From: Thermoplasmata archaeon
GTDB lineage: Archaea > Thermoplasmatota > Thermoplasmata > UBA10834
NCBI GenBank assembly: GCA_041554135.1
Contig: JBFFML010000005.1
Coordinates: forward strand, 28,195-92,194
Direction of reading: 5' to 3'
DNA length: 64,000 nt
Shown: positions 2,996 through 27,691 of the stretch, in pieces
Layout: each line of letters starts with the position of its first letter
Numbering within the stretch: the stretch's first letter is position 1
Translations under genes and position numbers: made by a program
Notes under the pieces: model-generated
The model's input: only the letters and a program-made list of their open reading frames with translations
The model's database searches: none
What the model was told of the DNA's origin: nothing

Positions 2996-3270
2996 AAACC
3001 GGCCATGAGCGGGCCGTGCTTATGGGCGGTCACCATCTTGGCGCGCGTGTAACCTATCTGACGACGAGGTAGTGATAGATAATTTGTGAATCTCTACTGG
3101 CGTGGTCGGCGGAAGTTATTGACCCGCAGAAGCGATGGGCGAGGGTTAGACCCGTGCCTCTCCCTGTTCTCTAACAGATGGGCGCCGTGACGCTTGCGAC
3201 AATCATCATCGTGCTAATCACCCCGAGAGCCAGGAATCGTCGAGCGGATACGGCATGAGCCTGAGAAGAG

Positions 3271-3377
3271 GTGGTGCTCCCGCCGGGATTTGAACCCGGG
3301 TATCGAGCTTGCTCCGGAGCCGACTTCCAGGATATCCGCGAGAGGCTCGAATGATTGGCCGGACTACACTACGGGAG
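3271..3377 (-). tRNA. tRNA-Glu(CUC) with a ~29-nt intron at 37/38; CCA encoded
   Basis: Manual cloverleaf: acceptor GCTCCCG/CGGGAGC, D-arm GTGT..TCAT, anticodon stem CGAGC/GCTCG, loop CT-CTC-G, T-arm CCGGG-TTCAAAT-CCCGG, then ACCA. Confidence 0.85.
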
Positions 3378-3487
3378 CCTGGTCAAAGCATCGAAATCCA
3401 GGAGCATTACATAAACTTTGGGGGTCCACCGTCCAAGGCAAAAGTAGATTTGAGCGTCAGGCAGTTACTTCGGCTGATGGTAATTGC

Positions 3488-10966: not shown

Positions 10967-11458
10967 CTACGCGCCAGCTTCGCCTATCATTCTCAGAATG
11001 CAGTCCACGATTGTAGGCACGGCTGCTGCGACGGGAGCCGTGAGCTCCTCGCTCACGTTCACGACGTCATCCGCCTCGACAGCTACGAAGTGGATCGTAT
11101 CTGGCATTTGGCCGGGTACGACGCGTCTCCCCATTGCGAGCGCCGTGGCAATGTTGATGCCGTGAGGGGAGGAGCCGTGTATCGTCCGTTCGAAGTCTCC
11201 TTCCTCGAGAACATACAACTCACCCGGCAGTCCATTGCCTGTGACGATGGCATCGATGATCACGACGGTGTCGTATCCGAGCACCATATCGAGCAGCTCT
11301 AGCCCGCTGGCTGGCAGTTCCTCCACGTCGACACCTGGCAAGCACAGTCCCCTCATCTTCCTCGCCACGTGTATGCCGACACCGTCGTCCGACAGGATCG
11401 GGTTTCCGACGCCAACAATGAGCGTCCGTTTCGCCCCGGCCACTTCGTCTCCTGTCAT
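10967..11458 (-). CDS. [NiFe]-hydrogenase maturation endopeptidase (HycI/HybD type)
   Basis: LIVGVGNPILSDDGVG motif. ATG at 11458 is preferred over the TTG at 11476. Confidence 0.8.
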   Translation of the reverse strand: MTGDEVAGAKRTLIVGVGNPILSDDGVGIHVARKMRGLCLPGVDVEELPASGLELLDMVLGYDTVVIIDAIVTGNGLPGELYVLEEGDFERTIHGSSPHGINIATALAMGRRVVPGQMPDTIHFVAVEADDVVNVSEELTAPVAAAVPTIVDCILRMIGEAGA

Positions 11459-11489
11459 GTAGGACAACCTCTGCAACGCGGTGGAACAT

Positions 11490-11536: not shown

Positions 11537-13051
11537 TCAGAAGTTTCTCAGCGTCTCCAGTCTCGAACCGTCCGCACGCCTTACGTTGACCTCCAACGCT
11601 GGAGAACCATTCAGGGCGTGCGTGCCGCAGGAGTTGCACGGGTCGTAGCACCGGAACGCCATTTCGACCTTGTTGAGAAGACCCGGAGAGACCTCCCAAT
11701 TCTTGATCAAGGCCTTCGCAGCCTGGACGACGCTCGTGTTTATGGCCGCGTAGTTGTTGGTCGTGGCCACGATCATGTTGATCTTCGTGCACAGCCCGTC
11801 CTTGTCGGAGGCGTAGTGATGTATGAGCGTACCTCTTGGCGCCTCGCAAATGCCAACACCCTCTGTGGGCTCGCCCACCTCTCCACGGATGTCATCGCTC
11901 GTGATGCTCTTGTCGCTCGCCAGTTCGAGCATCCTCTCGGTGGCGTACTGTAGCTCGATCACCCTTGCCCAGTGGAAAGCCAGGGTGTGATGTACAGGCC
12001 CTGTCACTCCGAGGTCCTTCACCGTCTTCGCCAGTACCTCGTATTCCGCCTGAGCGAGTGGGGTGGTGTATCCCTCACAGACGTTGATTCTACCCAGCGG
12101 CCCTACTCTGTAGATGCCGCTCGATGGGCCGTCGGTGAAGCCGTTCCATCCAACCTGCTTCAAGAAGGGCATCTTCATGTATGTCCATGGTTCGACATGC
12201 TCTGCGATAACATCGAGATACTCGTCCGGCTTGTACTTGACGACCTCCTTGCCCGTCTGGTCGACAACACGGATGTCCCCGTCATAGAAGTTCGATTTGT
12301 TGTCCTTGTCCACCATGCCCATGTAGTACGTCTCGAGGTAGTATGCGTCCTGGTTCAGCACAAGGGCCATGTAGTCCTGGTTCGCCAGCACCACGTCGTG
12401 CAGGAGCTTCACGGTGAACTTGGCGAACTCGACGCATGACTTCGCCATCTCCTCCATCTGAGCGCGCTCCTCCTCGCTGATCTGCTTGGATACGCCTCCA
12501 GGAAGGCCGAAACAAGGATGCGTCGCTCTTCCTCCGACGATCTCTTGCACCTTCTGGCCGAATGATCGGTGCTTGATCACCTCTGCTCCTATCTCCACGC
12601 CCACGGCGTCGACTACACCGAGGACATTCCTCTTGTTGGACGGTGCGGACGGGCCCAGCACAAAGTCAGGCGCTGCCAGCGCGTAGAAGTGCGCTATGTG
12701 GCTGTGGGTGTACTGCCCCATGTAGAACAGCTCCCTGAGCTTCTTCGCCGTCTCGGTCGGCTCAGCGTCGAACACCGCGTCGAGAGCCTTTGTTGACGCT
12801 ATGTGGTGCGCGGCCGGACACACTCCGCACAGTCTGTTGGTCAGCACCGGCAACTCCTGCACATGCCTTCCGATGCAGAAGCGTTCGAACCCCCTCAATT
12901 CCGGTACCTGGAGATATGCGTTTGCGACGTTGCCCTGGTCGTTCAGGAATATCTCTATCTTGCCGTGCCCCTCGAGCCTCGTGATCGGGTCGATGGTTAT
13001 CTTCGTCTCCGTCGTCTTCGTCGTCTCGTCGTTTATGATAGGTCCTGACAT
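11537..13051 (-). CDS. mvhA: F420-non-reducing [NiFe] hydrogenase large subunit MvhA
   Basis: RLEGHGKIEI, RLCGVCPAAHH (N-terminal Ni-Fe cysteines), DPCNSCGTH (C-terminal cysteines) and a cleavable tail. Confidence 0.9.
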   Translation of the reverse strand: MSGPIINDETTKTTETKITIDPITRLEGHGKIEIFLNDQGNVANAYLQVPELRGFERFCIGRHVQELPVLTNRLCGVCPAAHHIASTKALDAVFDAEPTETAKKLRELFYMGQYTHSHIAHFYALAAPDFVLGPSAPSNKRNVLGVVDAVGVEIGAEVIKHRSFGQKVQEIVGGRATHPCFGLPGGVSKQISEEERAQMEEMAKSCVEFAKFTVKLLHDVVLANQDYMALVLNQDAYYLETYYMGMVDKDNKSNFYDGDIRVVDQTGKEVVKYKPDEYLDVIAEHVEPWTYMKMPFLKQVGWNGFTDGPSSGIYRVGPLGRINVCEGYTTPLAQAEYEVLAKTVKDLGVTGPVHHTLAFHWARVIELQYATERMLELASDKSITSDDIRGEVGEPTEGVGICEAPRGTLIHHYASDKDGLCTKINMIVATTNNYAAINTSVVQAAKALIKNWEVSPGLLNKVEMAFRCYDPCNSCGTHALNGSPALEVNVRRADGSRLETLRNF

Positions 13052-13057: not shown

Positions 13058-14074
13058 TCACTCCTTCTTCTTGCGCTTCTCGGTCACCGTGCGTCTCAGC
13101 AGCGACTTCGGCAGCGTGAAGGCGTAGAAGGTCCCGAGCGGGTCCTTCACCTGCATCATCAATTCCATTATCTGCTCCTCACTTAACTTTGACTCCGAAT
13201 CCGTGATGTTCAGGAGCGAGGACAGGGCGCTCAGCATGCTCCCGCCGTGGTCCATGACGGCCTTGGTCGGGCCCATGCAGCCTCTGCACGGCATGTTCGC
13301 GTTAGGGCACATCGCGCCGCAGCCCGCCCTCGTCGCGGGCCCGATGCAGATGATCCCCTGGTCGAGCAGGCACTTCTTGGGGTCGGCCTTGATCTCATAC
13401 GACTGGTATATCTTGTCTATCCGCCGTCCCTTCTCCACGCGCTCGCGGGGACACTCGTCGCAGAGCGTCTTGTCGGACGCGATGACCGTGCCCTTGGGCG
13501 GCAGGTCGGCGCCCTCCGTGACGTGCTTGGCCACGGCGTCCACCGCCATGGCTATCAGGTTGACCGTCGGCGGGCAGCCAGGCATGAAGTAATCGACGTC
13601 CACGACCTCGTCCAGCGTCTTGACGCTGTCGTAGAACACCGGTAGCTCGAGCTCGCCCTCCGGCACCGTCGAGATCGGCTGCGGCGTGACGAAGTCGGGG
13701 TTGTCCGTGGAGGCGGTGTTCTTGTAGACGGTCTCGAAGACCTCCTTCCTGTTGGTCACGTTCGCCAGCCCAGGCGTCCCGCCGAAGCAGGCGCACGAGC
13801 CGAAGGCGATCATGATGACCGACTTCTCCCTCAGCACCTTCGCCACATGCTCGTTCTCGCTGTTCCTGATAGCGCCGTTGTAGAACGAGACGGTTATCGA
13901 CTTGTCCGGCATCGCCTCGATCTCATGGAGCTTGCCGTCGAAGCCTATGGGCCAGAACACGACCTCCGCTATGGCGTGCACGTCCAGTATCTTTGCGTCT
14001 ATGTCCAGCAGCGCGACGTCGCAGCCTCCGCAGCCCGCGCCCCAGTACTGTGCGATTTTGATCTTGTCTGCCAT
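13058..14074 (-). CDS. mvhG: F420-non-reducing hydrogenase small subunit MvhG
   Basis: Starts MADKIKIAQYWGAGCGGCDVA, preceded by GGAGGTGAG. No Tat signal. Distal FeS cysteines CPNANMPCRGC. The track ORF's N-terminal 133 aa are out-of-frame overlap with the upstream gene. Confidence 0.85.
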   Translation of the reverse strand: MADKIKIAQYWGAGCGGCDVALLDIDAKILDVHAIAEVVFWPIGFDGKLHEIEAMPDKSITVSFYNGAIRNSENEHVAKVLREKSVIMIAFGSCACFGGTPGLANVTNRKEVFETVYKNTASTDNPDFVTPQPISTVPEGELELPVFYDSVKTLDEVVDVDYFMPGCPPTVNLIAMAVDAVAKHVTEGADLPPKGTVIASDKTLCDECPRERVEKGRRIDKIYQSYEIKADPKKCLLDQGIICIGPATRAGCGAMCPNANMPCRGCMGPTKAVMDHGGSMLSALSSLLNITDSESKLSEEQIMELMMQVKDPLGTFYAFTLPKSLLRRTVTEKRKKKE

Positions 14075-14076
14075 GG

Positions 14077-14469
14077 TCAGCTCACCTCCTCTCCTGAAGA
14101 CTCGGCCCTCATCGGGACCGCCGAGTATTGCGGCGACAGGCCTTTCATGCCGACCTGCTCGATCATCCGCCACCGCTTCAGGGCTATTATGTGCCTCACT
14201 ATCTCCGGCTTCGGTATGCCCGTCAGGTCGTGGAGCTCGTGCACCGTCTTGGGCCCATCCTCCATCTGCAGTATGAGCGCGTTTCTCTCGAGCTCGACCG
14301 AGGCAGCCTTCTGCAGTATGAAGCTGTATCTCGCCTCCGTGATGACCTCTCCGAACACGTTCTCGCCCGTGGTGAGGGCGCCCTTCTTGCCGAGCAGCCA
14401 CCTCACCCTCTCGCCCTCGAGCGTCCTTAGGGCGGCCCTTATCTTGGCGTCCCTGGGAGACATGCTCAC
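14077..14469 (-). CDS. Small winged-helix-like protein coupled to mvhD/mvhG (uncharacterised)
   Basis: GPKTVHELHDLTGIPKPEIVRHIIALKRWRMIEQ resembles a wHTH. Homologous to the C-terminal half of 17965-18786. GTGA overlap with the mvhD stop (or ATG at 14463). Confidence 0.5.
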   Translation of the reverse strand: MSMSPRDAKIRAALRTLEGERVRWLLGKKGALTTGENVFGEVITEARYSFILQKAASVELERNALILQMEDGPKTVHELHDLTGIPKPEIVRHIIALKRWRMIEQVGMKGLSPQYSAVPMRAESSGEEVS

Positions 14470-14930
14470 TCACCCTCCCTCGCTATGGGCGACGGCCCCA
14501 GCTCCTCGATCGTGTCCGTGAACTCGACCATCGTCTTCTGGAACTTCTCCCCCTCGCCCGCGGATATCCACTCGAGCCTCAGCCTGCCAGGGTCGAACCC
14601 GAACTGCTGCAGCAGTATCTTCAGGAGGGCGATCCTCCTCCGCGTCCTGTAGTTGCCCCCTATGTAGTGGCAGTCCGCGGGATGGCATCCCGCCACGAGT
14701 ATGCCGTCGGCGCCCTTCTGGAAAGCCCTCAGGACGAACTCGGGGTCGACCCTCGCGGAGCACATCACCCGGATCACCCTGAAGTGCGGCGGCATCTGCA
14801 ACCGGCTGACGCCCGCGAGGTCCGCGCCTGCGTACGAGCACCAGTTGCAGCAGAACACGATTATCTTCGGCTCGAAGTCCCCGGCGTCAGTCTTCGCCTG
14901 CCCCTCCGCGTTGGGTGCCGCGCTGCTCAC
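14466..14930 (-). CDS. mvhD: MvhD ([2Fe-2S] hydrogenase-Hdr connector), copy 4
   Basis: [22 protein letters not shown] and GCHPADCHY motifs. GTG start in a GTGA overlap with the upstream stop. Confidence 0.9.
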   Translation of the reverse strand: MSSAAPNAEGQAKTDAGDFEPKIIVFCCNWCSYAGADLAGVSRLQMPPHFRVIRVMCSARVDPEFVLRAFQKGADGILVAGCHPADCHYIGGNYRTRRRIALLKILLQQFGFDPGRLRLEWISAGEGEKFQKTMVEFTDTIEELGPSPIAREGE

Positions 14931-17900
14931 TGCCTCACCTCCTGCTTCTCGGCGTCGTCCTCAAGCGCCGCGTCGATCATCGCGACTATCTGCTCGTCCC
15001 TGAAGCCCTTCTGCGTGAGCGCGCCGGACGGGCACGCCCCGACACACGCCCCGCAACCCTTGCACAGGCCCACGTTGACGTCGACGAGCTTCTTCGTCTC
15101 GTCCTTCTGGTCGACTATGATCTCGAGCGCCTTGTACTCGCATGTCGGCACGCATATGCCGCAGCCGTCGCAGAGCGTCTCGTCTAGGCTCGCGACGATG
15201 CCCTCCGCCTCGAGGGTCTTCTTCGAGAGGATGGTCATCGCCCGCGACACCGACGCCAGGCCCTGGCCGATGCACTCGTCCAGGAACTTCGGCCCGTGCG
15301 CCAGCCCGGCGAGGTATACGCCCTCCGTGGCGAAGTCCACCGGCCTCAGCTTCATGTGTGCCTCGAGGAAGAAGCCCTCCTTCGTCAGTGGCACCTTGAG
15401 CATGGGCGCGAGCGCGTCCGCGCCCTCGTACGGCCTCGTGCCGCTCGCGAGGACGAGGTAGTCGGGGGTGATCTCGATGTCCTTGCCCGTGTCCTCGTCC
15501 GTGACGGAGACCACGAGCCTGTCACCCTTCGCCTCGACCTTCGGCTTCACGTCGTCCTCGAACCTGACGAAGGTGACGCCCTTCTCGGCCGCGGTCTTGT
15601 AGTACTCCTCCCTGAAGCCGTAGGTCCTGATGTCCCTGTACAGGATGAAGACCTTCGCGTCCGGGTCCTTCTCCTTGATCTTTATCGCCGCCGTCATCGT
15701 ACCCGTGCAGCATACGCGGGAGCAGTTAGGATGCCCCTCCTCGCGCGAGCCGACGCACTGGATGAACACGTACGAATCGCCCTTGACCTCGCCTTTCTTG
15801 AGCTTCTCCTTGAACTCCAGCAAAGTCAGCACGTTCGGGTTCTCGCCGTAGAGATACTCTCCTTTCGGCTTGTACTCCTGGCCCCCTACCGCGACTATGA
15901 CCGTCCCGTGCTCGAACTTCTCGTCGTTCTCCAGCGTCGTGACGAAGTTGCCCACGTAACCCTCGATGTTCTTCACGCCCACGCCGGCGTGCACCGTGAT
16001 GTTCTCGTTCGACGCGACCTCCTTCGCCAACGATTCCGCGAACTCGAGCGGGTCCTCGCCGGACGGCAGGTAGTGCAGCCTCCTCAGGTTGCCTCCGAGC
16101 TCCTTCTCCTTCTCGACGAGGTGGACCTTGACGCCCTGCTTCGCCAGCTCGAGCGCGGCGACCATCCCGGTCGCCCCGCCGCCGACGACGAGCCCGGCCT
16201 GGTTCACGTCGATCATGAGGTTCTCCAGCGGCTCCAGCAACCTGGACTTCGCGACGGCCATGCGTACGAGGTCCTTCGCCTTCTTCGTCGCGGCGTCGGC
16301 CTCGTGCATGTGTATCCACGAGCACTGGTCGCGTATGTTCGCCATCTCGAACAGGTACGGGTTGAGCCCCGCCTCCTTGATAGTGTTCTGGAACAGCGGC
16401 TCGTGCGTCCTCGGCGTGCAGCTCGCGACGACCACGCGGTTCAGGTCGTGCTCCTTGATCATCTCCTTGATCTTCTCCTGCGTGTCCTGTGAGCAGGTGT
16501 AGAGGTTCTCCTCGGCGTAGACCACGTTCGGCAGCGTCCTCGCGTACTCGGCGACGGACGGCACCTTCACGACGCCGCCGATGTTGATGCCGCAGTGGCA
16601 CACGAACACGCCTATGCGCGGCTCCTGACCGGTGATGTCCATCTCGGCGGGGTACTCCTTCTTCGTCACGAGAGTGTCCCTCGCGGAAGCTATCTGCGTC
16701 GCCGCCTTCGCCGCGGCGCCGCTCGCCTCAGCCACAGTCATCGGTATGTCCTTGGGCGACGAGAACGCGCCGCTGACGAACACGCCAGGCCTCGAGGAGC
16801 TGACTGGGTTCAGCACGTCTGTCTTGCAGAAACCGTCCTTGTTCAGCTGGAACTTCATCACGCGGCTCAACGTCTCGGCGTCCTCCGGGGGCCTGAAACC
16901 CACGGCGAGGACGACCAGGCCGAACTCCTCCTCCTTGGGCTCGCCCTTCTCGACGTACTTCACCACGAGGTTCTTCGTCTCGGGGTCCTCGAACACGGAC
17001 GCGACCCTGGAACGGACGAACTCTATGCCGTACTCGTCCTGTGCCCTGTTGTAGTACTCGTCGAACTCCTTCCCGAACGCCCTCATGTCCATGAAGAATA
17101 TCTTGGGCTGTATGTCCCCGCCATGCTCCTTGGCGATGATCGCCTCCTTGATGGAGTACATGCAGCAGACGCCCGAGCAGTACTCGTTGCCCACCTGCTC
17201 GTCCCTCGAGCCCACGCACTGTATGAACGCTATCTTCGCGGGTATGTCGCCGTCCGACGGGCGCATGACGGTGCCGAAGTACGGCCCCGTCGCGCTCAGC
17301 ATCCTCTCGAACTCGATGCTCGTGACGACGTTCTTGTACACCCCGTATCCGTACTCCCCCTTCAGGCGAGCGTTGAACTCGTCGAAGCCGGGCGACAGGA
17401 TTATCGACCCGACCTTGATCTCGAGGACCTTCTCCTTCTGGTCGTAGTCCACCGCGTTCGCCTTGCACTCCTCCGAGCATATGCCGCAGCCTATGCACTT
17501 CTCCGGGTCTATGGAGTAGACGAGCGGCACGGCCTGCGGGTACCTGACGTATATCGCCTTCCTGACCTTGGTGCCCTCGTTGTACTCGTCGGTCACCTCG
17601 ATCGGGCACTTCTGTGCGCATGACCCGCAACCTGTGCACTTGGTCGGGTCCACCCTGAACGCCCTCTGCTTCACGGTCACTGTGAAGTTGCCCTCCTGCC
17701 CGTCGACTATCGCTATGTCCGCGTTGGTGATCAGGTCTATGTTGTGATGCCTGCCCGTGGCCACGAGCTTGGGCGCCATGATGCACATCGCACAATCGTT
17801 CGTCGGGAAGGTCTTGTCCAGCTGGGCCATCGTGCCGCCTATGCTGGGCTGCTTCTCCACCAGGTATACCTTGAATCCGGAATCGGCCAGGTCAAGGGCG

Positions 17901-17968
17901 GACTGGAGGCCCGATATGCCGCCACCCACGACCATGACCGCGCCGATCTTCTCGCCTGCCGCCATCAC
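14927..17968 (-). CDS. Double HdrA-like flavoprotein (1013 aa; two thioredoxin-reductase-like FAD modules in one chain)
   Basis: N-half: [28 protein letters not shown], inserted 2x CxxCxxCxxxC(P), CVGSRD. C-half: [13 protein letters not shown]-domain, VVGGGATGMVAALELA, CVGSRE, and a C-terminal 2x Cys4 ferredoxin. Confidence 0.85.
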   Translation of the reverse strand: MMAAGEKIGAVMVVGGGISGLQSALDLADSGFKVYLVEKQPSIGGTMAQLDKTFPTNDCAMCIMAPKLVATGRHHNIDLITNADIAIVDGQEGNFTVTVKQRAFRVDPTKCTGCGSCAQKCPIEVTDEYNEGTKVRKAIYVRYPQAVPLVYSIDPEKCIGCGICSEECKANAVDYDQKEKVLEIKVGSIILSPGFDEFNARLKGEYGYGVYKNVVTSIEFERMLSATGPYFGTVMRPSDGDIPAKIAFIQCVGSRDEQVGNEYCSGVCCMYSIKEAIIAKEHGGDIQPKIFFMDMRAFGKEFDEYYNRAQDEYGIEFVRSRVASVFEDPETKNLVVKYVEKGEPKEEEFGLVVLAVGFRPPEDAETLSRVMKFQLNKDGFCKTDVLNPVSSSRPGVFVSGAFSSPKDIPMTVAEASGAAAKAATQIASARDTLVTKKEYPAEMDITGQEPRIGVFVCHCGINIGGVVKVPSVAEYARTLPNVVYAEENLYTCSQDTQEKIKEMIKEHDLNRVVVASCTPRTHEPLFQNTIKEAGLNPYLFEMANIRDQCSWIHMHEADAATKKAKDLVRMAVAKSRLLEPLENLMIDVNQAGLVVGGGATGMVAALELAKQGVKVHLVEKEKELGGNLRRLHYLPSGEDPLEFAESLAKEVASNENITVHAGVGVKNIEGYVGNFVTTLENDEKFEHGTVIVAVGGQEYKPKGEYLYGENPNVLTLLEFKEKLKKGEVKGDSYVFIQCVGSREEGHPNCSRVCCTGTMTAAIKIKEKDPDAKVFILYRDIRTYGFREEYYKTAAEKGVTFVRFEDDVKPKVEAKGDRLVVSVTDEDTGKDIEITPDYLVLASGTRPYEGADALAPMLKVPLTKEGFFLEAHMKLRPVDFATEGVYLAGLAHGPKFLDECIGQGLASVSRAMTILSKKTLEAEGIVASLDETLCDGCGICVPTCEYKALEIIVDQKDETKKLVDVNVGLCKGCGACVGACPSGALTQKGFRDEQIVAMIDAALEDDAEKQEVRQ

Positions 17969-18786
17969 TGCTCACCTCCGATCTCGATCGTCCTGTAAAG
18001 GGGCGTGTACCCCTCCGGGTGCTCCATGGCTATCTTGCTGTTCTGCCTCAGGAGGACGATGTGCCTCAGGATCCTGTCCGTCGGCGTCTCCATGAGCATC
18101 CCGAGCTGCTTCACCGACATCGGCCTTATCCTGGCGAGCTCCAGGATCATGGCCCTCTCGAACTCCTCCTCCGTGGCCTCGTCGATGACGCCCTTGAGCT
18201 CCTCGGGGTCCAGCTTGTTGCCGTACGCGTTGCCCTTCTCGACGAGGTTCAGCTCCTTGCCGACGAGCGCCTTGAGCCTGAAGGACTGCGAGGCGTCCTC
18301 CGCGGACGCGAGCCTCGTCCTGACCATGTCGTCCTCGCGGGCCTTGCACGGCCCGAGCGCCTTGATCTGCTCGGTGAACTCCGTGACGACCTTGGAGAAC
18401 TTCTCACCCTCGGACGCGGAGACCCACTCCAGCCTCAGCCTCGCTGGGTCCACTCCCGCCTCCTCGAGGAGTTTCTTCATCAGGCCGACCCTCTTCTCGG
18501 TGTAGAAGTTGCCCGATATGTAGTGGCAGTCGCCTATGTGGCAGCCCCCGAGCAGCACGCCGTCGGCCCCGGCCTTGAACAGGTCGAGCACGAGGTGCGG
18601 GCTCACCCTGGTCGAGCACATCACCCTGACCGCGCGTATGTTCGTCGGGTACTGGTACCTGCTGACGCCGCACAGGTCCGCGCCTGCGTACGAGCACCAG
18701 TTGCAGAGGAAGCCGATTATCTTCGGCTCCCACGGGCCTTCGTGCTTCTTCTCGTGGTGTCCGCCATGGTGGTGCTTGTCCGTCAT
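17965..18786 (-). CDS. MvhD domain fused to a C-terminal winged-helix-like domain
   Basis: N-terminal [24 protein letters not shown] (MvhD). The C-terminal ~120 aa (..ILELARIRPMSVKQLGMLMETPTDRILRHIVLLRQ..) are homologous to 14077-14469. Confidence 0.75.
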   Translation of the reverse strand: MTDKHHHGGHHEKKHEGPWEPKIIGFLCNWCSYAGADLCGVSRYQYPTNIRAVRVMCSTRVSPHLVLDLFKAGADGVLLGGCHIGDCHYISGNFYTEKRVGLMKKLLEEAGVDPARLRLEWVSASEGEKFSKVVTEFTEQIKALGPCKAREDDMVRTRLASAEDASQSFRLKALVGKELNLVEKGNAYGNKLDPEELKGVIDEATEEEFERAMILELARIRPMSVKQLGMLMETPTDRILRHIVLLRQNSKIAMEHPEGYTPLYRTIEIGGEQ

Positions 18787-18789
18787 GGT

Positions 18790-20658
18790 TCACACCTCCT
18801 CGTCAAGCGCGGCCTTCGCCTCCGCGAGCAGCTGCGCGTCGGTGTAGTTCGTCATGGTTATCGCTCCCTCGGGGCATGTGGCGCCGCAGCAGCCGCAGCC
18901 CTTGCAGGCGGCGACGATCACCTCGGCGATGCCCTCGTCGTTCTTCCTCAGGGCGCCGTACGGGCAGACCGTCACGCAGGTGCCGCAGCCAGTGCACTTC
19001 GTCTCGTCGATCACGGACGTGAGCGCCTCCGACTGGACGAACCCCTTGGCCATGGGTATGGCGGCTCGCGACGCCGCTGCGCCCCCTTGGATCGCGCAGT
19101 CCGTTATGTCCGCGGGTCCCCTGCAGGTGCCGGCGACGTACACGCCGTCGGTGGCGAAGTCCACCGGCCTGAGCTTGACGTGCGCCTCGAGGAAGAAGCC
19201 CTCCTGCCCCAGCGGGACCTTCAGCATCTTGGACAGGTCGCCCGCGTCCTGCTGCGCCACCAGCGGCGTGGACAGTATCACCATGTCCACCTGCATGGTC
19301 CTCTCCATCTTCAGCGTCTCGTGGAAGTACGTGATCATCAGCTGGTCGTCCTTCATGAACACCTTCGGGGCGTTGTCGGGCACGTACCGCACGAACTTGA
19401 CCCTCTTCTCCCTGGCCTTGTTGTAGGTCAGCTCGTGCTCGATGCCGTAGGCCATGACGTCCCTGTTGAAGACCGTGACCTCGATCTTGTCCGAAGGTCC
19501 GAGGCGCACCTCCTCCGCGCCCGCGTCCCCGCGGTCCCTGCCGCGCCGTCTCCGCCTCCGCTCCATGATCTCGTCAGGTGCCTTCTGCTCCACGGGCACG
19601 GTCTCGACCACCTCGCCCTCCTTCTCCGCGATACCGAGCATGTTCTCGTAGTTGTCCACGATGTTGATCGCGTTCTTGATGGCCACGTTGCAGCAGATCC
19701 TGGAGCAGTACGACAGCTGCTGCCCCCTCGAGCCCACGCACTGTATGAAAGCCACGTTCTTCAGCTTGGGCAGGGTCTTCTTCTTGCACAGTATCTCGAA
19801 CTCGGTCAGCGTCACGACGTTCGGGTACTGGTTGTATCCGTACAGCCCTTCAGGCACGAACTCGAGCGCCCCCGTCGCCACGATGATGGTCCCGACCTTG
19901 ACCTTCTGGGCCTCCTTGTCCTTCTCCGCGATCTCCACCTCGTAGTTGCCTATGAACCCCTCTGCGGACTTGACCGTCGAGTTGAGGTGGACGGTTATCT
20001 TGTCATTCGCCTGGACCTTGTCTATCATGGGTTTGATGGTCTCGATGGCGCTCTTCTGGGTGACGAACAGGTTGTTCAGGTTCCTGACGAACCCGCCGAG
20101 CTCGGACTCCCTCTCCACGAGGTGGACCGGGAAGCCCATGTCCGCTATCGACGCCGCGGCCGTCATCCCTGACACGCCGCCGCCGATGACCAGCGCCGTC
20201 GACTCCACGTCGACCTTGGCCTCCTCCTGAGGCTCCAGCAGCCGCGCCCGCGCGACGCCCATGCGCACGAGGTCCTTCGCCTTCTTCGTCGCCGCCTCCT
20301 TCTCCTTCATATGGACCCATGAGCAGTGTTCTCTGAGGTTCACGAAGGTGAAGAGGTATTTGTTAAGTCCAGCAGCCGCGCATGTGTTCTGGAACAGCGG
20401 GGCGTGCGTCCTCGGTGTGCAGCTCGCGACGATCACCCTGTTCAGCTTGTGCTCCTTTATCGCGTCCTTGATAGCCGTCAGCCCGTCGTCCGCGCACGTG
20501 TAGAGGTTGTCAGTCGCGTAGGCGACGTCCTTCAAGGTCTTAGCATAATCCGCAACGGACGGCACGTCCACGAACCCGCCTATGTTGCTGCCGCAGTGGC
20601 ACACGAACACGCCGATCCTCGTCTCCTCGTCCTTCCTCTCGTTCTCGCTCATCCGCAA
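18790..20658 (-). CDS. HdrA-like flavoprotein, 'C-half' type (N-terminal CHCG domain + FAD + C-terminal ferredoxin)
   Basis: [36 protein letters not shown] and C-terminal CTGCGTCVTVCP / CKGCGCCGATCP. The track start is TTG; ATG at 20652 is also possible. Confidence 0.85.
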   Translation of the reverse strand: MRMSENERKDEETRIGVFVCHCGSNIGGFVDVPSVADYAKTLKDVAYATDNLYTCADDGLTAIKDAIKEHKLNRVIVASCTPRTHAPLFQNTCAAAGLNKYLFTFVNLREHCSWVHMKEKEAATKKAKDLVRMGVARARLLEPQEEAKVDVESTALVIGGGVSGMTAAASIADMGFPVHLVERESELGGFVRNLNNLFVTQKSAIETIKPMIDKVQANDKITVHLNSTVKSAEGFIGNYEVEIAEKDKEAQKVKVGTIIVATGALEFVPEGLYGYNQYPNVVTLTEFEILCKKKTLPKLKNVAFIQCVGSRGQQLSYCSRICCNVAIKNAINIVDNYENMLGIAEKEGEVVETVPVEQKAPDEIMERRRRRRGRDRGDAGAEEVRLGPSDKIEVTVFNRDVMAYGIEHELTYNKAREKRVKFVRYVPDNAPKVFMKDDQLMITYFHETLKMERTMQVDMVILSTPLVAQQDAGDLSKMLKVPLGQEGFFLEAHVKLRPVDFATDGVYVAGTCRGPADITDCAIQGGAAASRAAIPMAKGFVQSEALTSVIDETKCTGCGTCVTVCPYGALRKNDEGIAEVIVAACKGCGCCGATCPEGAITMTNYTDAQLLAEAKAALDEEV

Positions 20659-21957
20659 TCACGCCCCTCCTGACTGGACGAGCGCCTCGACGGCCTTCGC
20701 CGCCGCGCTCGATCCCTGCGCGACCGATTCCGGTATGTCCGCGGGGCCTGCCGCGTAGCCCGCGAGATATATGCCTGGGACGACTGTCCTGCACGGGTCC
20801 AGCACACGGTCCGCCGCCTCGAGGAAGCCGAACTCGTCGGCCTTGATGCCGAGCATCTTGGCGACCTCCAAGGTCTCCTTCCTCGGCACGAGGGTCGTCG
20901 CCAGGACGACCATGTCGAACTCCTCGGACTGCTGCTTGCCCCCAACGTCGTACACTACGACGGGGTTCTGGTTGTCCGGGTTCTGCTGCACCGTCGCGTC
21001 GGAGTTGACGTACCTCACGCCGTAGTCGCGCTTGGCCCGTTCGACGTACTCGAAGAAGCCCTTCGCGCAGGCGCGCATGTCCTTGTAGAATATGACCGAC
21101 TCGATGTCATCGTAGTGCTCCCTGGCCAGCATGGCCTCCTTGGTCGAGTGCATGCAGCACACGGCGCAGCAGTACGGGTGCCCGACCTGCGGGTTCCTCG
21201 AGCCGACGCACTGGATGAACGCCATCTTCTTCGGACGCTCCTCGTCCGACCTCCTCTTTATGTGCCCATGGGTCGGCCCCGCGGCGTTTATCATCCGCTC
21301 GTACTCCATCGCGGTGAAGACGTTCGGATACTTGCCGTAGCCGTACTCGCTCGCGGATGTGGGGTCCCAGACATCGTAGCCCGTCGCGACGACTATCGCC
21401 CCGACCTCTATCTCGAGCATCTGGTCCTTCATCTCGTAGTCGATCGCCTCGCGGGCGCACACCTTCTTGCAGTTCCCGCACTTGTCCTTCGTGAGCTTGA
21501 TGCAGTTCTCCTTGTCGATCGTCATGACCCTGGGGACCGCCTGCATGAACGGCACGTAGATGGCCTTCCTGTTCTTCAGCCCCATCTCGAACTCGTCAGG
21601 GACCTTCACGGGGCACTTCTCGAGGCACTCGCCGCAGCCAGTGCACTTGTTCTCATCGACGTACCGCGCCTTCTTGAGAACCTTCACCTTGAACTCGCCA
21701 GCCTTCCCCTCGATTCCAACGACCTCCGAATACGTGATGACGTTCGTGTTCGGATGGCCGAAGCAATCCGCCATCTTGGGCGCGAGAATACATATCGAAC
21801 AGTCGTTCGTCGGGAAGGTCTTGTCCAGCTGTGCCATCCTGCCTCCTATGCTCGGAGACTTCTCGACCAGATGGACAATGATCCCCTTGTCCGCGAGGTC
21901 CAGAGCGGCCTGTATGCCCGCGACCCCGCCTCCAATCACCATTACTGACTTCTCCAT
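20659..21957 (-). CDS. HdrA-like flavoprotein, 'N-half' type (FAD + inserted ferredoxin; no CHCG domain, no C-terminal ferredoxin)
   Basis: [48 protein letters not shown] and CVGSRN. Its stop abuts the next gene. Confidence 0.85.
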   Translation of the reverse strand: MEKSVMVIGGGVAGIQAALDLADKGIIVHLVEKSPSIGGRMAQLDKTFPTNDCSICILAPKMADCFGHPNTNVITYSEVVGIEGKAGEFKVKVLKKARYVDENKCTGCGECLEKCPVKVPDEFEMGLKNRKAIYVPFMQAVPRVMTIDKENCIKLTKDKCGNCKKVCAREAIDYEMKDQMLEIEVGAIVVATGYDVWDPTSASEYGYGKYPNVFTAMEYERMINAAGPTHGHIKRRSDEERPKKMAFIQCVGSRNPQVGHPYCCAVCCMHSTKEAMLAREHYDDIESVIFYKDMRACAKGFFEYVERAKRDYGVRYVNSDATVQQNPDNQNPVVVYDVGGKQQSEEFDMVVLATTLVPRKETLEVAKMLGIKADEFGFLEAADRVLDPCRTVVPGIYLAGYAAGPADIPESVAQGSSAAAKAVEALVQSGGA

Positions 21958-22104
21958 TCACAACCCCTCCAAAGAGTGTCTTTGTGGTATCGCTCCTCTA
22001 CATTCACGCAGACGCGGTCCTCACCCGTCCGTGAGTCCTCGCCCCCTGTCGAACTGCCCTTTTCCGTAACTCCTACTCTCTATTATCTGTTTCGTTGACC
22101 GGCC

Positions 22105-22154
22105 GCGGGGCCCCCGGGGGTCGAAATCCGTCCATCGCGCCCCCCGGGGCCGTC
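22105..22154 (-). terminator. GC-rich hairpin directly after the stop of the Cys4 mini-protein gene (terminator or processing structure)
   Basis: GGCCCCCGGGGG (22109-22120) pairs with CCCCCCGGGGCC (22140-22151) at 11 of 12 positions, with a 19-nt loop. Confidence 0.35.
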
Positions 22155-22165
22155 CCGTTTCGTCC

Positions 22166-22588
22166 TCAGGTCACGGCCTTGCCCTTCTTCAGCACCTGCT
22201 TGACGTCCTTGTCCTTCTTGATCTCGGTCACCTTGACCTTGAACGGCACCTTCTTCCTGGCCTGCAGCACCTCGCTCGAGAACCTCTGGCAGTTGGGGTA
22301 TGTGCACGGCGAGCACTTCTTGTCCTTGCACGCCAGCTCGATCAGCACGAGCCTGTCGCGTGTGTCGTCGGGCTTAACCACCGGCTTCTTGACCTCGAAC
22401 ATCTTGGTCATCTTGGTCTCGAAGGGCACCTTCTTGGGCTTCATCTCCCTGACGAACCTCTGGCAGTTAGGGTACGTGCACGGCGAGCACTTCTGGTCCT
22501 TGCATGACAGCTCGATCAGCAGGAACCTCTGGTCGGCGTCGTCCTTCTTCTTCTTTTTCTCCTCGCTATCCACTTTCTTCGGTGACAT
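22166..22588 (-). CDS. Lys-rich mini-protein with two tandem Cys4 repeats (uncharacterised)
   Basis: Two ~58-aa repeats, each (F/L)(L/V)LIEL(S/A)CKD(Q/K)KCSPCTYPNCQRF...KKVPF. It lies 21 nt downstream of the MvhD-HdrCB fusion on the same strand. ATG start. Confidence 0.55.
   Translation of the reverse strand: MSPKKVDSEEKKKKKDDADQRFLLIELSCKDQKCSPCTYPNCQRFVREMKPKKVPFETKMTKMFEVKKPVVKPDDTRDRLVLIELACKDKKCSPCTYPNCQRFSSEVLQARKKVPFKVKVTEIKKDKDVKQVLKKGKAVT
22280..22521. repeat. Intragenic direct repeat: two 68-nt copies (22280-22347 and 22454-22521), period 174 nt
   Basis: By-eye alignment shows roughly 90 percent identity between the copies, while the flanking codons have diverged. Confidence 0.8.
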
Positions 22589-22609: not shown

Positions 22610-24208
22610 CTACTCCAATGACTCTGCAATCGCCACGCTGATGTCCTTTATGGGTATGTCTACCTGCTCCTTCGGCACGCCCTCAGTCTTGTTGTCCCTG
22701 GCGCAAGCGAGGTGTATCAGGCATTTGTAGCAGCCGGTGACCAGGCACTCCGCCCCCGTCCTCTTCGCCTCTCTCAGCCTGTCGAGCTGCAGCCTCCGCG
22801 AGATCTCGTCGCATGTCGCCCAGGCGCTCACGCCGCAGCAGAGCGCCTTGTCCCTCGTGTTCTCCATCTCGACGATCTCCGTGCCGTCAGCCGCCTTGAG
22901 CGCGTCCCTGGGCTGGTCGTATATTCCGAGGTGCCTGCCCAGCCGGCAGGAATCCTGGAACGTCAGCTTCCTCGCGTTCGGCTTGAACTTGACCTTGCCC
23001 TCCTTTATCAGGTCGTCGACGTACTCCGATATGTGCACCATCTCGAAGTCCAGGTCGCCCATGAGGTCCTGGTAGTCCATGTCGAAGGTCCTCAGGCACT
23101 CGGGGCATGAGAAGACCACCTTCTTCGCGCCGGAGTCCTTGATCATGTCGATGTTCTTCTTCATGAGCTTCTGGAGGCCGAGCTCGTCCCCCGTCCAGTT
23201 GAGGTCGTGTCCGCAGCAGACCTCGTCGTTCCTGACGACGGGCGTGACGCCGGCCTTGTTCATTATCCTCACGACCGACCTCGGGATCTCCGTCAGTTCA
23301 AGGTCCCTGTCGCTGAGCATGTTGTCGAAGTACGATACGCACCCCGTGAAGTACAGCACCTCGCCCTTCTCGGCCACCTTCAGGTCCGGGGTGACCCAGC
23401 CGAGCCTGTCCTGCTTGAAATCCCCGTGCGCCTGTATCCTCATGAGGGCGTGCATCTGGCCCCCTTGGCTGCAAACGGCCTCGTTGTCCATCTTCGACGC
23501 CTCGACGCGCAGGCCCCTGATGAAGCCCGAGTAGTCCACCTTGTAAGGGCACATCGAGTTGCACTGCTCGCACGTGATGCATGTCCAGATGTCCCTGTTC
23601 GTGGCGAACGTTTCCGCCTGGCCCTCCGTAGCCTTGAGGACGATGGTCCTCGGGGCGAAGTCGGTGTTGTACTTAGCCACCGGGCACACCGTCGTGCACT
23701 TGCCGCACTCGACGCAGTCGAACGCGCCGGTGTCCTCTATGAGCTGGTCTACCTTGTCCTTCAGCTTCGATCGGTCGTACGGCAGCCTCGGTATCTTGGG
23801 CATGGGGTTCGGCCCGAGCCCGCGTATCTGCTCGGTGAACTCCTTCATCGTGGCCGCGAACTTCTGGCCTTCCGAGGCGGATATCCATTCGAGGCGCATC
23901 CTCTCCTGGCCTATGCCCACGATGTCGAGGAGCTCCTTCGTCATGTTCATCCGCTTCTCCGCCTCGACGTTGCCTGATATGTAGTGGCAGTCGCCTATGT
24001 GGCACCCAGCGACGAGGACGCCGTCGGCTCCGAGCTCGAACGCTCGGAGCACGAAGGTGGGCTCGATCCTCCCCGAGCACATCACCCGTATCACCCTCGC
24101 GTTGGGCGGATACTGCATGCGCCCCACGCCCGCGAGGTCCGCGCCCGCGTACGAGCACCAGTTGCAGCAGAACGCGACTATGTGTGGTTCGAATCTCGGC
24201 TCGGTCAT
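22610..24208 (-). CDS. Triple fusion MvhD + HdrC-like (2x[4Fe-4S]) + HdrB-like (2x CCG domain)
   Basis: [24 protein letters not shown], then [12 protein letters not shown] / [12 protein letters not shown], then FTGC..VCCGH..SCPEC and DSC..LCCGV..TGCYKC. ATG at 24208 sits in an ATGA overlap with the upstream stop. The track's N-terminal 125 aa are an out-of-frame artefact. Confidence 0.85.
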
Positions 24209-27200
24209 GTCCCCGCCTCCTGCTTCTCCTCGTCCCTCGCGAGCGCCGCCTCGATCATCGTCATTATCTGGTCTGTCCTGAAGTGCTTCGGGCGGATCGC
24301 CCTTGTGCAGCACTCGACCGCGCACGAGCCGCATCCCTTGCAGAGCGCCTCGTAGATGCGCGACTTGAATACGCCAGGGGAAACCTCCTCGAGTCTCGGG
24401 GCGCCGTACTCGCACAGCTCCTCGCACCTGCCGCAGCCGACGCACTTGTCCTCGTCGACCACGCTGACGACGCCCTCGGCCTCTATGGACGGCTTGGACA
24501 GGACGGTGTTGACCCTGGCCGCCGCGGCGAGCGCCTGGGATATGCTCTCGTCGATCAGTCTCGGCGAGTGCGCCAACCCGCATAGGAACACGCCATCCGT
24601 GGCGAAGTCCACTGGCCTGAGCTTCATGTGCGCCTCGAGGAAGTACCCCTCCTTGTTCTGCGGCACCTTCAGCAGCTGCGCCAGCTCCTTGTTGTCAGGG
24701 TTCGGGTGCACCGCGGCGTTGAGCACGACATATGTGGGCCTGATCGTGATGGTCTCCTCGATGAACTGCTCGTCGACTTCGACCACGAGGTCGTCGCCGT
24801 CGGCCCGCACGCTCGGCGGCGATGATGGGTCGTATCGCAGGAAGATAACTCCCTGCTTCGCCGCCTCGTTGTAGTTGTCCTCCGCGAAACCGTATGTGCG
24901 TATGTCTCTGAACAGGATGTAGACGCTCGTCCCGGGATGCTCCTTCTTGATCCTCAAGGCGTTGGCCATCGCCGTCGAGCAGCATATCCTCGAGCAGTTC
25001 GGGTGCTCATCGTCCCTCGAGCCCACGCACTGTATGATCACCACGCTCTTCGCGTCCAGCTTACCGGTCGCGATCATTTCGCCGAGGTCGGTCTGCCTGA
25101 TCACGCGCGGGTGCTCCCCGTAAAGGTACTCCTTTGGCTCGTACTCGATCCCGCCGGAGGCGACGACGATTGCTCCGTGCCTTATCTCCTCGCCGCTCCT
25201 CAGCCTGGTCTCGAAGTTGCCGATGTAGCCCTTTATCTCCTCGACGGAGTCCTCGAGGTGCACCTTGATCTTATCGTGATCGTGGATGTCTTTCTTCAGC
25301 GCGGCCAGGGTCTCCTGCGGGTCGATCCCCGCGAGGGTGTGGTATATCCTGCGCAGATGCCCACCGAGCTCCCTCTCCTTCTCGACGATATGTACCTCGA
25401 ACCCGGCCTTCGCGATCTCCAGCGCCGCCGTCATGCCGCTCAGGCCCCCGCCTATCACGAGCGCGACCGGCGTGACGGGTATCTTCGGCTGGGGCAGCGC
25501 CTCCAGCCGGGCGGCCTTCGCAACGGCCATGCGCACGAGGTCCTTGGCCTTCTCCGTGGCCGCCTCGGGCTCGTTGCGGTGGACCCACGAGCACTGGTCG
25601 CGTATGTTCGCCATGTCGAAGAGGTACTTGTTCAGGCCGGCCTCCCGGACGGTGTTCTGGAACAGCGGCTCGTGCGTCCTCGGCGTGCAGCTCGCGACGA
25701 CCACGCGGTTAAGGTCGTGTTCCTTGATCATGTCCCTTATCTTCTTCTGCGTGTCCTGGGAGCAAGTGTACAGGTTCTGCTCGGCGTATACGACGCCTGG
25801 AAGCTTGGACGCGTACTCCATGACCTCGGGTACGTCCACGACCGAGCCGATGTTGATGCCGCAGTGGCACACGAACACGCCTATGCGCGGCTCCTGGCCC
25901 GTGGCGTCCCTCTCCTCGGGGTACTCCTTCGCGGTCACGAGCGTCCCCCTCTCATCGGAGAGCAACGCGGCCGCCTTGCCCGCGGCCCCGCTCGCCTGGG
26001 CGACCGAGTCCGGGATGTCCTTCGGGCCAGAGAACGCCCCGCAGACGTAGATCCCTGGCACCGAAGTATCCACAGGAGCGAGCTCGTCGGTCTCGCAGAA
26101 GCCGTAGGCGTTGGCTTTCACGCCCAGCGTCTTCGCGAGCGCGCGGGCTGACTCGGGCGGCGTCGCGCCCGCCGACAGGACGACTATGTCGAACTGCTCC
26201 TCCTTTATGTCCGCCCCGTCTATGAAGCCCAGGATGAGCGAGCCCGTGTCCTCGTCCTGCTGGACCTTTGATATGCGGTTGTTCCTGAACACCCTGACGC
26301 CGTACTCCGTCTCCGCGCGGTGGAGGTACTCCTCGAACTCCTTGCCGAACGCGCGCGTGTCCATGAAGAATATCGTCGTCTTCAACCCGGGCACGTGCTC
26401 CTGCGCTATGACCGCCTGCTTGAGGGCGGCCATGCAACAGTACGACGAGCAATAGGTGTTGGGCGTCTGGGCGTCCCTGGAGCCGACGCATTGTATGAAC
26501 GCCACCTTCTGGGGCACGTCCCCGTCGGAAGGCCTGATGACATGTCCCTCCGTGGGGCCGGACGCGCTCAGCATCCTCTCGAACTCGATGTTGCTTACGA
26601 CGTTGGGGAACACCCCGTGGCCGTACATGGCCTTCCTCGAGACGTCGTAGACGTCGTATCCAGGCGCGAGTATGATCGCGCCCACCTCGATAGTCTCCTC
26701 TATGTCGGGCTCCATCGAGTACTTTATCGCGTCCGCTTCGCAGAACTTCTCACAAATGCCGCAGCCTATGCACAGTCCCCTGTCGATCGTGTACACGAGC
26801 GGGACCGCCTGCGGGAACGGGACGTATATCGCCTTCGCGGGCGCGAGGTCTCGGTCGAAGGCGCTCGTCCCCTCGATCGGGCAATGCTCGGCGCAGACGC
26901 CGCAGCCCGTGCACCTGTCCTCCAAGATGTACCTCGAGTGCCTGGTTATCGTGACATTGAACCGTCCGGCCTGTCCCTCGACCTTCTTCAGCTCGGCGTT
27001 CGTGAGCATATTGATGTTCTCGTGCCTGCCGGTGGCGACTAGCTTGGGCGAGAGGATGCACATCGAGCAGTCGTTCGTCGGGAAGGTCTTGTCCAGCTGG
27101 GCCATCGTGCCGCCGATGCTGGGCGTGCCCTCCAGGAGATATACCTTGTATCCGGAATCGGCGAGGTCCAATGCGGCCTGCATGCCCGCGGGCCCCCCGC

Positions 27201-27240
27201 CGACGATTAGCACCGCGCCCACTTTGCCGTTCTCAGCCAT
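24205..27240 (-). CDS. Double HdrA-like flavoprotein (1011 aa), paralogue of 14927-17968
   Basis: Same half-domain order: [16 protein letters not shown] + [12 protein letters not shown] + inserted ferredoxin, then [12 protein letters not shown] + [16 protein letters not shown] + C-terminal [11 protein letters not shown] / [11 protein letters not shown]. Confidence 0.85.
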
Positions 27241-27241: not shown

Positions 27242-27691
27242 CTACGCGCCCCCTTCGGAGATCGGCCCGAGCTTCTCCAACTCGGAGACCATTTGCCTGA
27301 TCACTTCCGCGAACTTCTGTCCCTCGGACCCCGCGATCCACTCCACCCTGAACCGCTGCGGCTCTATGCCGGCCTCCTCTAGGAACTCGGAGAGGAACTC
27401 CCCTCTCAACGCCGTCTTCTCGTTCCCGTTGATGTAGTGGCAGTCGGATGGGTGGCATCCGGCGATGATCACGCCGTCGGCGCCCAGGGCGAACGCCTTC
27501 AGGACGAAGGCTGGGTCGACCCTCCCCGAGCACATGACCCTGACTATCTTCACGTTCGTGGGGTACTGCAGCCTGGTCGTGCCCGCGAGGTCCGCGCCTG
27601 CGTACGAGCACCAGTTGCAGCAGAACGCCACGATCCTTGGCTCATATGTCTCCTCTGTCTCCTGAGCGACCGCTTCCCCCTGCAGGCTCAC
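27242..27691 (-). CDS. mvhD: MvhD, copy 1 (follows hdrB)
   Basis: [22 protein letters not shown] and GCHPSDCHY. GTG at 27691 in a GTGA overlap with the hdrB stop, with AAGGGGGG upstream. The long track ORF extension is rejected. Confidence 0.85.
   Translation of the reverse strand: MSLQGEAVAQETEETYEPRIVAFCCNWCSYAGADLAGTTRLQYPTNVKIVRVMCSGRVDPAFVLKAFALGADGVIIAGCHPSDCHYINGNEKTALRGEFLSEFLEEAGIEPQRFRVEWIAGSEGQKFAEVIRQMVSELEKLGPISEGGA

Follow-up and report, generated by a model that had tools for sequence, protein, structure and literature searches.

A winged-helix extension of the MvhD adaptor, fused and free-standing, in an hdr/mvh gene cluster of an uncultured Thermoplasmata archaeon

MvhD acts as a universal plug between electron donors (hydrogenase, formate dehydrogenase and NADH modules) and HdrA-type bifurcating flavoproteins, and how it recognises such differing donors is poorly understood. 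Here we describe a unit of ∼125 aa, made up of a helical linker plus a winged helix-turn-helix (wHTH), that occurs twice in a 64,000-nt stretch of contig JBFFML010000005.1 from a Thermoplasmata archaeon (hereafter the window, whose coordinates are used throughout). One copy is the C-terminal extension of a 273-aa MvhD protein (the long MvhD; 17965-18786) and the other is the product of a separate gene, called X below (14077-14463), which lies between a short mvhD and mvhG; both belong to one minus-strand gene cluster. The unit is probably an extension through which the [2Fe-2S] adaptor MvhD docks with other proteins in double-HdrA complexes.

The closest described system is the class II benzoyl-CoA reductase (BCRII) of Geobacter metallireducens, BamBCDEFGHI, for which a cryo-EM structure was presented in a preprint of April 2026 (bioRxiv 10.64898/2026.04.10.717634). 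There, BamE is a fused HdrA dimer, and BamF, an MvhD adaptor located beside BamE and more than 100 aa longer than usual, connects BamED with the BamGHI input module; it meets the input subunit BamI through its wHTH, and its selenocysteine (Sec) 19 lies near the [2Fe-2S] cluster (bioRxiv 10.64898/2026.04.10.717634). The long MvhD of the window resembles BamF, which was compared by its description only, in length class, in domain order and in having a double HdrA as neighbour (1013 aa, BamE-like), and we strongly infer that BamF belongs to the same sequence family. A bacterial member of the family (locus L077) has TGA at the codon that carries Sec in BamF, codon 19, whereas the window proteins have cysteine there (CNWC); Sec/Cys exchange is common in this enzyme class, and Sec19 is probably not a defining feature of the BamF type. 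Other differences concern the surroundings. The input of BCRII is BamGHI (HydBC-like), while that of the window is the [NiFe] hydrogenase MvhAG and/or further double-HdrA modules; BCRII possesses BamBC (tungsten AOR), a unit that the window cluster lacks; and the BamF extension stands in cis, whereas the last module of the window has it as a separate gene. BamF was also described with 'two Rossmann-fold domains', to which no counterpart was mapped on the window model (bioRxiv 10.64898/2026.04.10.717634). Within the accessible literature, an MvhD-type protein with a winged helix is mentioned only in that preprint (bioRxiv 10.64898/2026.04.10.717634), which, along with labels in the IMG database, overtakes the remark of a preliminary description of the window that no report of such an architecture was known.

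The classical MvhD of the Mvh-Hdr and Fdh-Hdr complexes (5ODC chain D, 7BKB chain F, 8RVU chain F) shares with the long MvhD the N-terminal 145-residue MvhD domain and its cysteine pattern, and phmmer matched these 145 residues to 5odc_D with E=3e-56. The solved MvhD chains are, however, all 129-141 aa long and without an extension (PDB sequence search and Foldseek), against 273 aa for the window protein. Methanogen operons have mvhG directly after mvhD, with no gene between them; the short mvhD of the window (14466-14930; 154 aa; Pfam FlpD E=9e-56, 187.6 bits) likewise precedes mvhG and mvhA, but X intervenes. HdrA2 of Methanosarcina, an HdrA-MvhD fusion (NCBIfam NF040770), is a further case of MvhD fused to a partner. 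The HdrA2 model (777 positions) ends with the MvhD domain and has no wHTH, in contrast to an HdrA2-like protein found here (P0128) that carries a wHTH at its C-terminal end; the MvhD copies of the window, unlike HdrA2, are not fused to HdrA.

A shared unit in long MvhD and gene X

The Pfam FlpD/MvhD family covers residues 23-145 of the 273-aa protein (E=6e-53; 178.5 bits against a gathering cut-off of 22.3; MvhD part 18328-18732), and the CNWC...C...GCHxGDCHY cysteine pattern for a [2Fe-2S] cluster is present and aligns with the family. Residues 146-273 (17968-18351) match no Pfam family. X aligns with residues 170-272 at 28% identity over 104 aa (BLASTP, E=7e-9), and alignment of the X family profile with that of the fused family by hhalign gave 99.8% probability and E=1.4e-28 over 116 columns. 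Judged from these alignments, the homologous unit is the entire extension, helical linker as well as wHTH, with a similarity far beyond chance. Its elements are, in order, two or three short helices, a loop with the invariant R..L.GK...GNV[YF]G motif, and the winged helix, and the residues kept invariant from Thermoplasmata to Bathyarchaeota include, among others, a His of the recognition helix and G..P.Y in the wing. Both forms, fused and free, come after a double HdrA and an MvhD. The preliminary description had read 17965-18786 as MvhD followed by a C-terminal domain, had matched the stand-alone open reading frame (ORF) to that domain, and had called the two a Rosetta-stone pair. All of this was upheld, with the FlpD domain at 23-145 and the extension of ∼125 aa, and the pairing proved stronger than first claimed, as linker and wHTH are both homologous.

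The boundaries of X needed one correction. The stop codon of mvhD (TGA, 14468-14466) is overlapped, as GTGA, by a GTG at 14469, and the earlier reading had begun X at this GTG. Homologues of X are 123-130 aa long and start MSPR, MTPR or MSLR, and because of these N-termini the GTG was set aside: the true start is almost certainly the ATG at 14463 (128 aa), 2 nt past the mvhD stop and behind a Shine-Dalgarno-like GGAGGGTGA. At the other end, the stop codon of X (14079-14077) is separated by a 2-nt gap from the mvhG ATG at 14074, itself behind GGAGAGGAGGTGA. Thus the two junctions given earlier, GTGA overlap and 2-nt gap, hold, and only the use of the GTG as a start becomes unlikely. The last codons of mvhD (..REGE*, 14470-14485) and of X (..GEEVS*, 14080-14095) double as the Shine-Dalgarno-like motifs GGAGGGTGA and GGAGAGGAGGTGA, and such a role of the 3' end is probably why X homologues conserve acidic ..E[VM]S tails.

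The window has ∼60% GC and many long spurious ORFs in other frames. A 471-aa frame on the minus strand (13058-14473) runs across X and was rejected as an over-extended mvhG with a spurious 133-aa N-terminus that crosses X in another frame. Examples of this kind give some ground for regarding X as a spurious ORF in GC-rich DNA, or else as the decaying remnant of a duplicated long-MvhD gene, but the comparative data speak otherwise. Close homologues of X (68-100% identity) form 146 clusters of constant length (119-130 aa) from Thermoplasmata metagenomes, and a divergent clade with 42-48% identity occupies the same gene position (L040-L043). Pairwise comparison of the window with eight loci gave X a ratio of nonsynonymous to synonymous substitutions (dN/dS) of 0.10-0.28 at a near-saturated dS of ∼0.7-1.5; the ranges for mvhD and mvhG in the same comparison were 0.07-0.20 and 0.04-0.12. 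The order mvhD-X-mvhG was found in 32 of the 39 loci with a free-standing X, mostly with 1-2 nt between X and mvhG, the remainder being contig ends, frameshifted long-read assemblies and L044, the single true exception in synteny, where X overlaps the start of an HdrA gene. With a confident structural model in addition (see below), X is a real gene, and the remnant or spurious-ORF explanation is effectively refuted by homologue count, synteny and dN/dS.

In a neighbour-joining tree of the extension, the free-standing copies form one clade within Thermoplasmata, and apparent exceptions were Sec-split or partial gene calls. X is only ∼25% identical to the fused domain of its own operon and, given its position in this clade, is therefore not a recent copy of it. 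Three loci have no X, mvhD abutting mvhG directly (L051, 5556-7048; L053, 13152-14874; L057, 13386-14871); their MvhG is 85-88% identical to that of the window, they nest among X-bearing relatives in the tree, and they look like clean secondary losses. Because the free-standing copies are one clade with X-less loci nested inside it, the tree argues for a single origin of X, by fission or duplication of the long MvhD extension, followed by loss in some lineages.

Fold of the unit, and DNA or protein as its target

The AlphaFold2 (AF2) model of X (alignment of 22 sequences) had a mean predicted local distance difference test (pLDDT) score of 80.6, with helices at residues 3-13, 16-23, 27-32, 43-68, 74-81 and 85-97 and a hairpin at 101-115 (strands 101-107 and 110-115); pLDDT within the winged-helix region was 86-97. 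The model of the 273-aa fusion (41 sequences) had a mean pLDDT of 84.8 and a predicted TM-score of 0.82, and placed the wHTH in helices 194-220, 225-232 and 236-248 and a hairpin at 252-266 (pLDDT 87-97). The order of secondary-structure elements is identical in both models, at an offset of ∼149 residues, and the wHTH core spans residues 43-115 of X (14119-14337; AF2, Pfam and Foldseek) and 194-266 of the long MvhD (17989-18207). The winged-helix character suggested in the preliminary description was therefore borne out by structure prediction and Foldseek, as a helix-turn-helix (HTH) with a beta-hairpin wing, although in Pfam X is a borderline case. The linker had a pLDDT of 86-94 in the fusion (residues 151-200) versus 62-74 in X alone (residues 1-40), a comparison confounded by the different alignment depths; since the linker is predicted confidently only in the fused context, we cautiously suggest that it packs on MvhD.

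Foldseek searches of the PDB with the fusion retrieved MvhD chains first (5odc_D, target-normalised TM 0.83) and then the same winged-helix proteins that were retrieved with X, namely weak matches of the ArsR/SmtB/BigR/SqrR type (E∼1e-3, TM 0.4-0.6). This raises the alternative that X, and perhaps the fused domain too, is an ArsR-like DNA-binding factor that autoregulates the mvh/hdr operon and whose capture or release by the complex might report the redox state of MvhD. Several observations are consistent with it: the best wHTH matches are repressors, and many homologues are named 'ArsR family transcriptional regulator' in databases; residues 62-106 of X score just above the gathering threshold of 22 bits for HTH_5 (22.7 bits) and HTH_IclR (22.5 bits; borderline, E∼9e-5); X is mildly basic overall (isoelectric point, pI, of 9.0); and, as is often the case for regulators, it is dispensable, in L051, L053 and L057.

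Closer comparison with the ArsR/SmtB family weakens this explanation. X shares the HTH and beta-hairpin wing with SmtB (8QKF), BigR (3PQK) and SqrR (6O8K), but has neither sensing cysteines (its sequence is without any cysteine) nor metal ligands or a metal-site motif, and no conserved His/Asp cluster past the wing was found in the X family alignment. The sensing sites of the ArsR/SmtB family, an alpha3 Cys motif, an alpha5 His/Asp/Glu site or the redox Cys pair of BigR/SqrR, are missing from X. The C-terminal helix through which ArsR-type proteins dimerise is missing from both AF2 models, in which a disordered tail follows the hairpin. The NCBIfam ArsR/SmtB model (NF033788) gave X 15.8 bits against a cut-off of 55, and the fused window copy had no HTH match in Pfam at E<0.1. 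Conversely, the invariant R..L.GK...GNV[YF]G motif of the linker is not present in ArsR proteins, and the unit that bears it is nearly always either fused to MvhD or adjacent to it. In the fused copy of the window, the C-terminal part is acidic (pI 5.3). No inverted repeats or operator-like palindromes were found in the putative promoter region at 31286-31692, and in the second intergenic region named in the preliminary description (21958-22165) the same search gave only a GC-rich, stem-loop-like repeat at 22109-22151. Furthermore, in most of the family the domain is joined covalently to MvhD, to HdrA-MvhD or to an NfnB-like protein, X itself sits mid-operon with junctions of 1-2 nt that imply stoichiometric co-production, and the one solved relative of the architecture has its wHTH in contact with a protein. 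Altogether we consider a regulator unlikely, though less so as a moonlighting function of X. The [2Fe-2S]-linked redox-sensing regulator offered as one reading in the preliminary description gains nothing from these results, in view of the lack of cysteine, of a dimerisation helix and of an inverted repeat in the putative promoter region, and of the low ArsR/SmtB score.

Genomic company of the unit and a probable docking role

A profile search with the unit yielded 286 clusters at 50% identity with E≤1e-3, 150 of them at E≤1e-10, and the fused form occurs in Thermoplasmata, Bathyarchaeota and bacteria. When the best 150 clusters were re-annotated, an N-terminal MvhD was present in most, and many of the shorter members were calls truncated at an in-frame TGA. 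Four clusters are HdrA-MvhD-wHTH triple fusions (P0128, P0178, P0220 and P0232), and in P0263 the MvhD-wHTH runs on into an NfnB/GltD-like flavoprotein. The linkage of the wHTH to MvhD beyond the window, which the preliminary description had left to an architecture search, is thus widespread and extends to HdrA and NfnB-like fusions. A profile of the full-length long MvhD matched 7,930 proteins at E≤1e-10, a count that may include short MvhDs; among the best 120 of these, nearly all are 257-261 aa and three are 263-283 aa, and the single one that bears an organism name comes from Bathyarchaeota. IMG auto-annotation labels several members '(F420-reducing hydrogenase) delta subunit/predicted transcriptional regulator'.

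The bacterial long MvhDs are selenoproteins, with TGA at either of two sites. A Planctomycetota gene (L060, 9575-10342) has TGA in place of the first Cys of GCHxGDCHY, and the gene of L077 (9914-10687) reads MKMGEDNSIKILTFACTW*GYG, the TGA being codon 19, within the CxW(C/U) motif. These Sec codons account for many truncated metagenome calls of 165-175 aa and 228-234 aa.

Within 74 genomic loci, all 65 fused genes have an HdrA-type gene or a contig end on both sides. A recurring arrangement is a double HdrA, intact or split, followed by a long MvhD, with two or three successive copies in L015, L033, L040 and L056. The long MvhD of the window is flanked in the same manner by a split double HdrA (18790-21957) and by the 1013-aa double HdrA (14927-17968), and the order of split double HdrA and then long MvhD is kept in related loci. 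In bacteria, the long MvhD comes after a Sec-containing double HdrA, with three kinds of downstream neighbour: an NfnB-like protein together with NuoE/NuoF/NuoG-Fdh-like genes (L077), another double HdrA, an MvhD and, at the cluster end, MetV (DUF5981)/MetF (MTHFR) (L079, 7852-13522), or NfnB-like proteins (L075). By Pfam content, the genes on the far side of the L077 long MvhD from its double HdrA are like BamG/H/I. No BamB (AOR) neighbour was found near five bacterial candidates (P0244, P0172, P0179, P0152 and P0169, the contigs of P0169 and of P0145 being too short to inform on context), where NfnB-like, NuoEF/Fdh-like and MetVF genes were found instead. The wHTH extension therefore accompanies differing terminal modules.

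A docking role is favoured because of this constant company of HdrA-type genes (65 of 65), the additional fusions, the translationally coupled junctions of X and the precedent of BamF (bioRxiv 10.64898/2026.04.10.717634). The structural adaptor that the preliminary description had put forward as its first reading is supported on the same grounds. Behind it stand established points, namely homology of the two copies, a wHTH fold at the level of models, purifying selection, strict synteny and further fusions; from these we infer contact with protein rather than DNA, binding of X to MvhD, and a partner for the wing. The residues that are invariant between Thermoplasmata and Bathyarchaeota fit a conserved protein partner better than lineage-specific operators. 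The 273-aa protein, as a BamF-type long MvhD, carries the unit in cis, with the split double HdrA on one side and the next double HdrA on the other. In the last module, an old gene fission or duplication would have detached the unit from MvhD, and it is encoded as X, whose translationally coupled gene has mvhD and mvhG as neighbours. Under the docking interpretation, most likely X would bind MvhD in trans through its N-terminal helices, mimicking the arrangement in cis. The linker would clamp onto MvhD and the winged helix would be presented to a neighbouring redox module (MvhAG hydrogenase or double HdrA), which would set the geometry in which electrons pass from H2 to the bifurcating flavin modules. 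Gene order points to MvhG/MvhA as the partner of X and to the flanking double HdrAs as candidates for the fused copy. The BamF-BamI contact and the fusion of P0263 to an NfnB-like input protein suggest that contact would be made on the electron-donor side.

Some observations weigh against a docking role. The nearest solved relatives of the fold are DNA-binding ArsR/SmtB repressors, Arg, His, Lys and Arg are present in the recognition helix of X, and the net charge (median 0 to +1) and pI of the wHTH core do not discriminate. Close relatives without X keep an equally conserved MvhG, and the absence of X from L051, L053 and L057 means that it is not essential for MvhD-MvhG assembly and is accessory. 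Lastly, the Bathyarchaeota MvhD that precedes hydrogenase genes carries no wHTH.

The losses, together with the position of X between mvhD and mvhG and upstream of a maturation protease gene, could also suit a transient, chaperone-like assembly or maturation factor for MvhD or the hydrogenase small subunit rather than a stable subunit, since lineages that lost X show no visible change in MvhG or MvhD. The conservation of X is compatible with this as well: median identity to the window across loci was 73.5% for X, intermediate between the structural subunits (MvhD 84%, MvhG and MvhA 88%, double HdrA 80.5%) and the HycI protease (66%). However, hundreds of lineages have MvhD and the unit permanently joined in one protein, some of them with no hydrogenase nearby (L075, L077 and L079), which argues for a stable structural role, and the wHTH of BamF was resolved within a mature complex (bioRxiv 10.64898/2026.04.10.717634). 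We regard a maturation factor as quite improbable.

The hdr/mvh cluster and the significance of the extension

The co-directional cluster is one long minus-strand run from ∼31.3 kb down to ∼11 kb, given here in order of transcription. It begins with an HdrA-like protein (29183-31285), a small ferredoxin (28602-29186), a short MvhD without C-terminal addition (about 27263-27682) and the first intact double HdrA (24205-27240), continues with an MvhD that runs on into HdrC/HdrB-like CCG domains (22610 to about 24200 or to 24583; MvhD part 23795-24193) and a 140-aa Cys-repeat protein (22166-22588), and reaches the split double HdrA, recognised through Pfam as an N-part of 432 aa (20659-21957) and a C-part of 622 aa (18790-20658). 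After the long MvhD comes the second intact double HdrA, a fused dimer with two Pyr_redox_2/FAD units and several Fer4 domains by Pfam, then the short mvhD and X. The run closes with mvhG, the [NiFe] hydrogenase small subunit (13058-14074; assigned from sequence, with Oxidored_q6 in the identical locus L001), mvhA, the large subunit (11537-13051), and a HycI-type hydrogenase maturation protease (10967-11476), with NiFeSe_Hases/HoxH and HycI Pfam matches, respectively, in L001. MvhG is 85-95% identical in related loci. The nearest relatives of the locus are metagenome-assembled genomes of uncultured Thermoplasmata; an identical copy of X is found on GCA_041561925.1, and other loci are 70-85% identical.

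The only CCG-domain gene of the operon is the MvhD-HdrC/B fusion, sited after another double HdrA. The earlier remark that both wHTH-carrying modules lack a CCG subunit of their own is accordingly true of gene order, the module boundaries being drawn by us within a single co-directional cluster. The four MvhD paralogues show four C-terminal arrangements: none, a fusion to HdrC-HdrB-like CCG domains, a fusion to the wHTH, and the wHTH as a separate next gene.

Several further features of the cluster were noted. The Cys-repeat protein is lysine-rich, contains a CKD[QK]KCSPCTYPNCQRF motif twice and matches no Pfam family significantly. Many Thermoplasmata loci conserve it (61-79% identity) where it stands here, after the MvhD-HdrCB fusion and before the split double HdrA, and it may serve as a small subunit that binds a metal or a cluster. 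The 208-nt gap between its gene and the split double HdrA holds a GC-rich inverted repeat at 22109-22151 (GGCCCCCGGGGG ... CCCCCCGGGGCC) with 12-nt arms that are 92% complementary, which looks like an RNA stem-loop rather than an operator. In one subgroup of relatives (L005, L006, L008, L009, L011-L014 and L027, at positions of about 1080-3800), the N-half of the split double HdrA reaches ∼900 aa, against 432 aa in the window, the extra ∼470 aa lying between residues ∼150 and 628 and having no match to window proteins. Immediately upstream of the hdr/mvh cluster, the same strand carries hydrogenase maturation genes: hypD (31693-32775), hypF (33409-35622) and a hypB/cobW-type GTPase gene (35628-36326).

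A bolder and more doubtful possibility is that the wHTH extension daisy-chains flavin-based bifurcation modules into one megacomplex in uncultured Thermoplasmata and Bathyarchaeota, with a series of [double HdrA + long MvhD]n that would end in MvhAG and with X as the detachable last link to the hydrogenase. If so, the operon's three double HdrAs, four MvhDs, one HdrCB and MvhAG would together form an H2-driven bifurcation machine, coupled in series, that would resemble coupled BCRII modules but draw on H2, and loss or exchange of X might re-wire the chain.

To our knowledge, a docking extension on MvhD has so far been seen structurally only in BamF. That structure lessens the novelty of the present finding, since the architecture itself is already described. 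What is new is that the extension defines a large family, of at least 286 clusters at 50% identity and probably with Bathyarchaeota sequences in their thousands, that stands beside HdrA-type genes wherever its context could be examined (double HdrA in the archaeal loci), that archaeal clusters linked to H2, in which several modules are stacked, contain it, and that one Thermoplasmata lineage has it as a separate subunit, whose gene is flanked by mvhD and mvhG and is at present wrongly annotated as an ArsR regulator. The extension offers a simple sequence marker for BamE/BamF-type modules in metagenomes, and with it many 'ArsR family transcriptional regulator' annotations can be corrected. For uncultured archaea, whose operons with multiple HdrA and MvhD genes are otherwise hard to interpret, it provides candidate subunit contacts.

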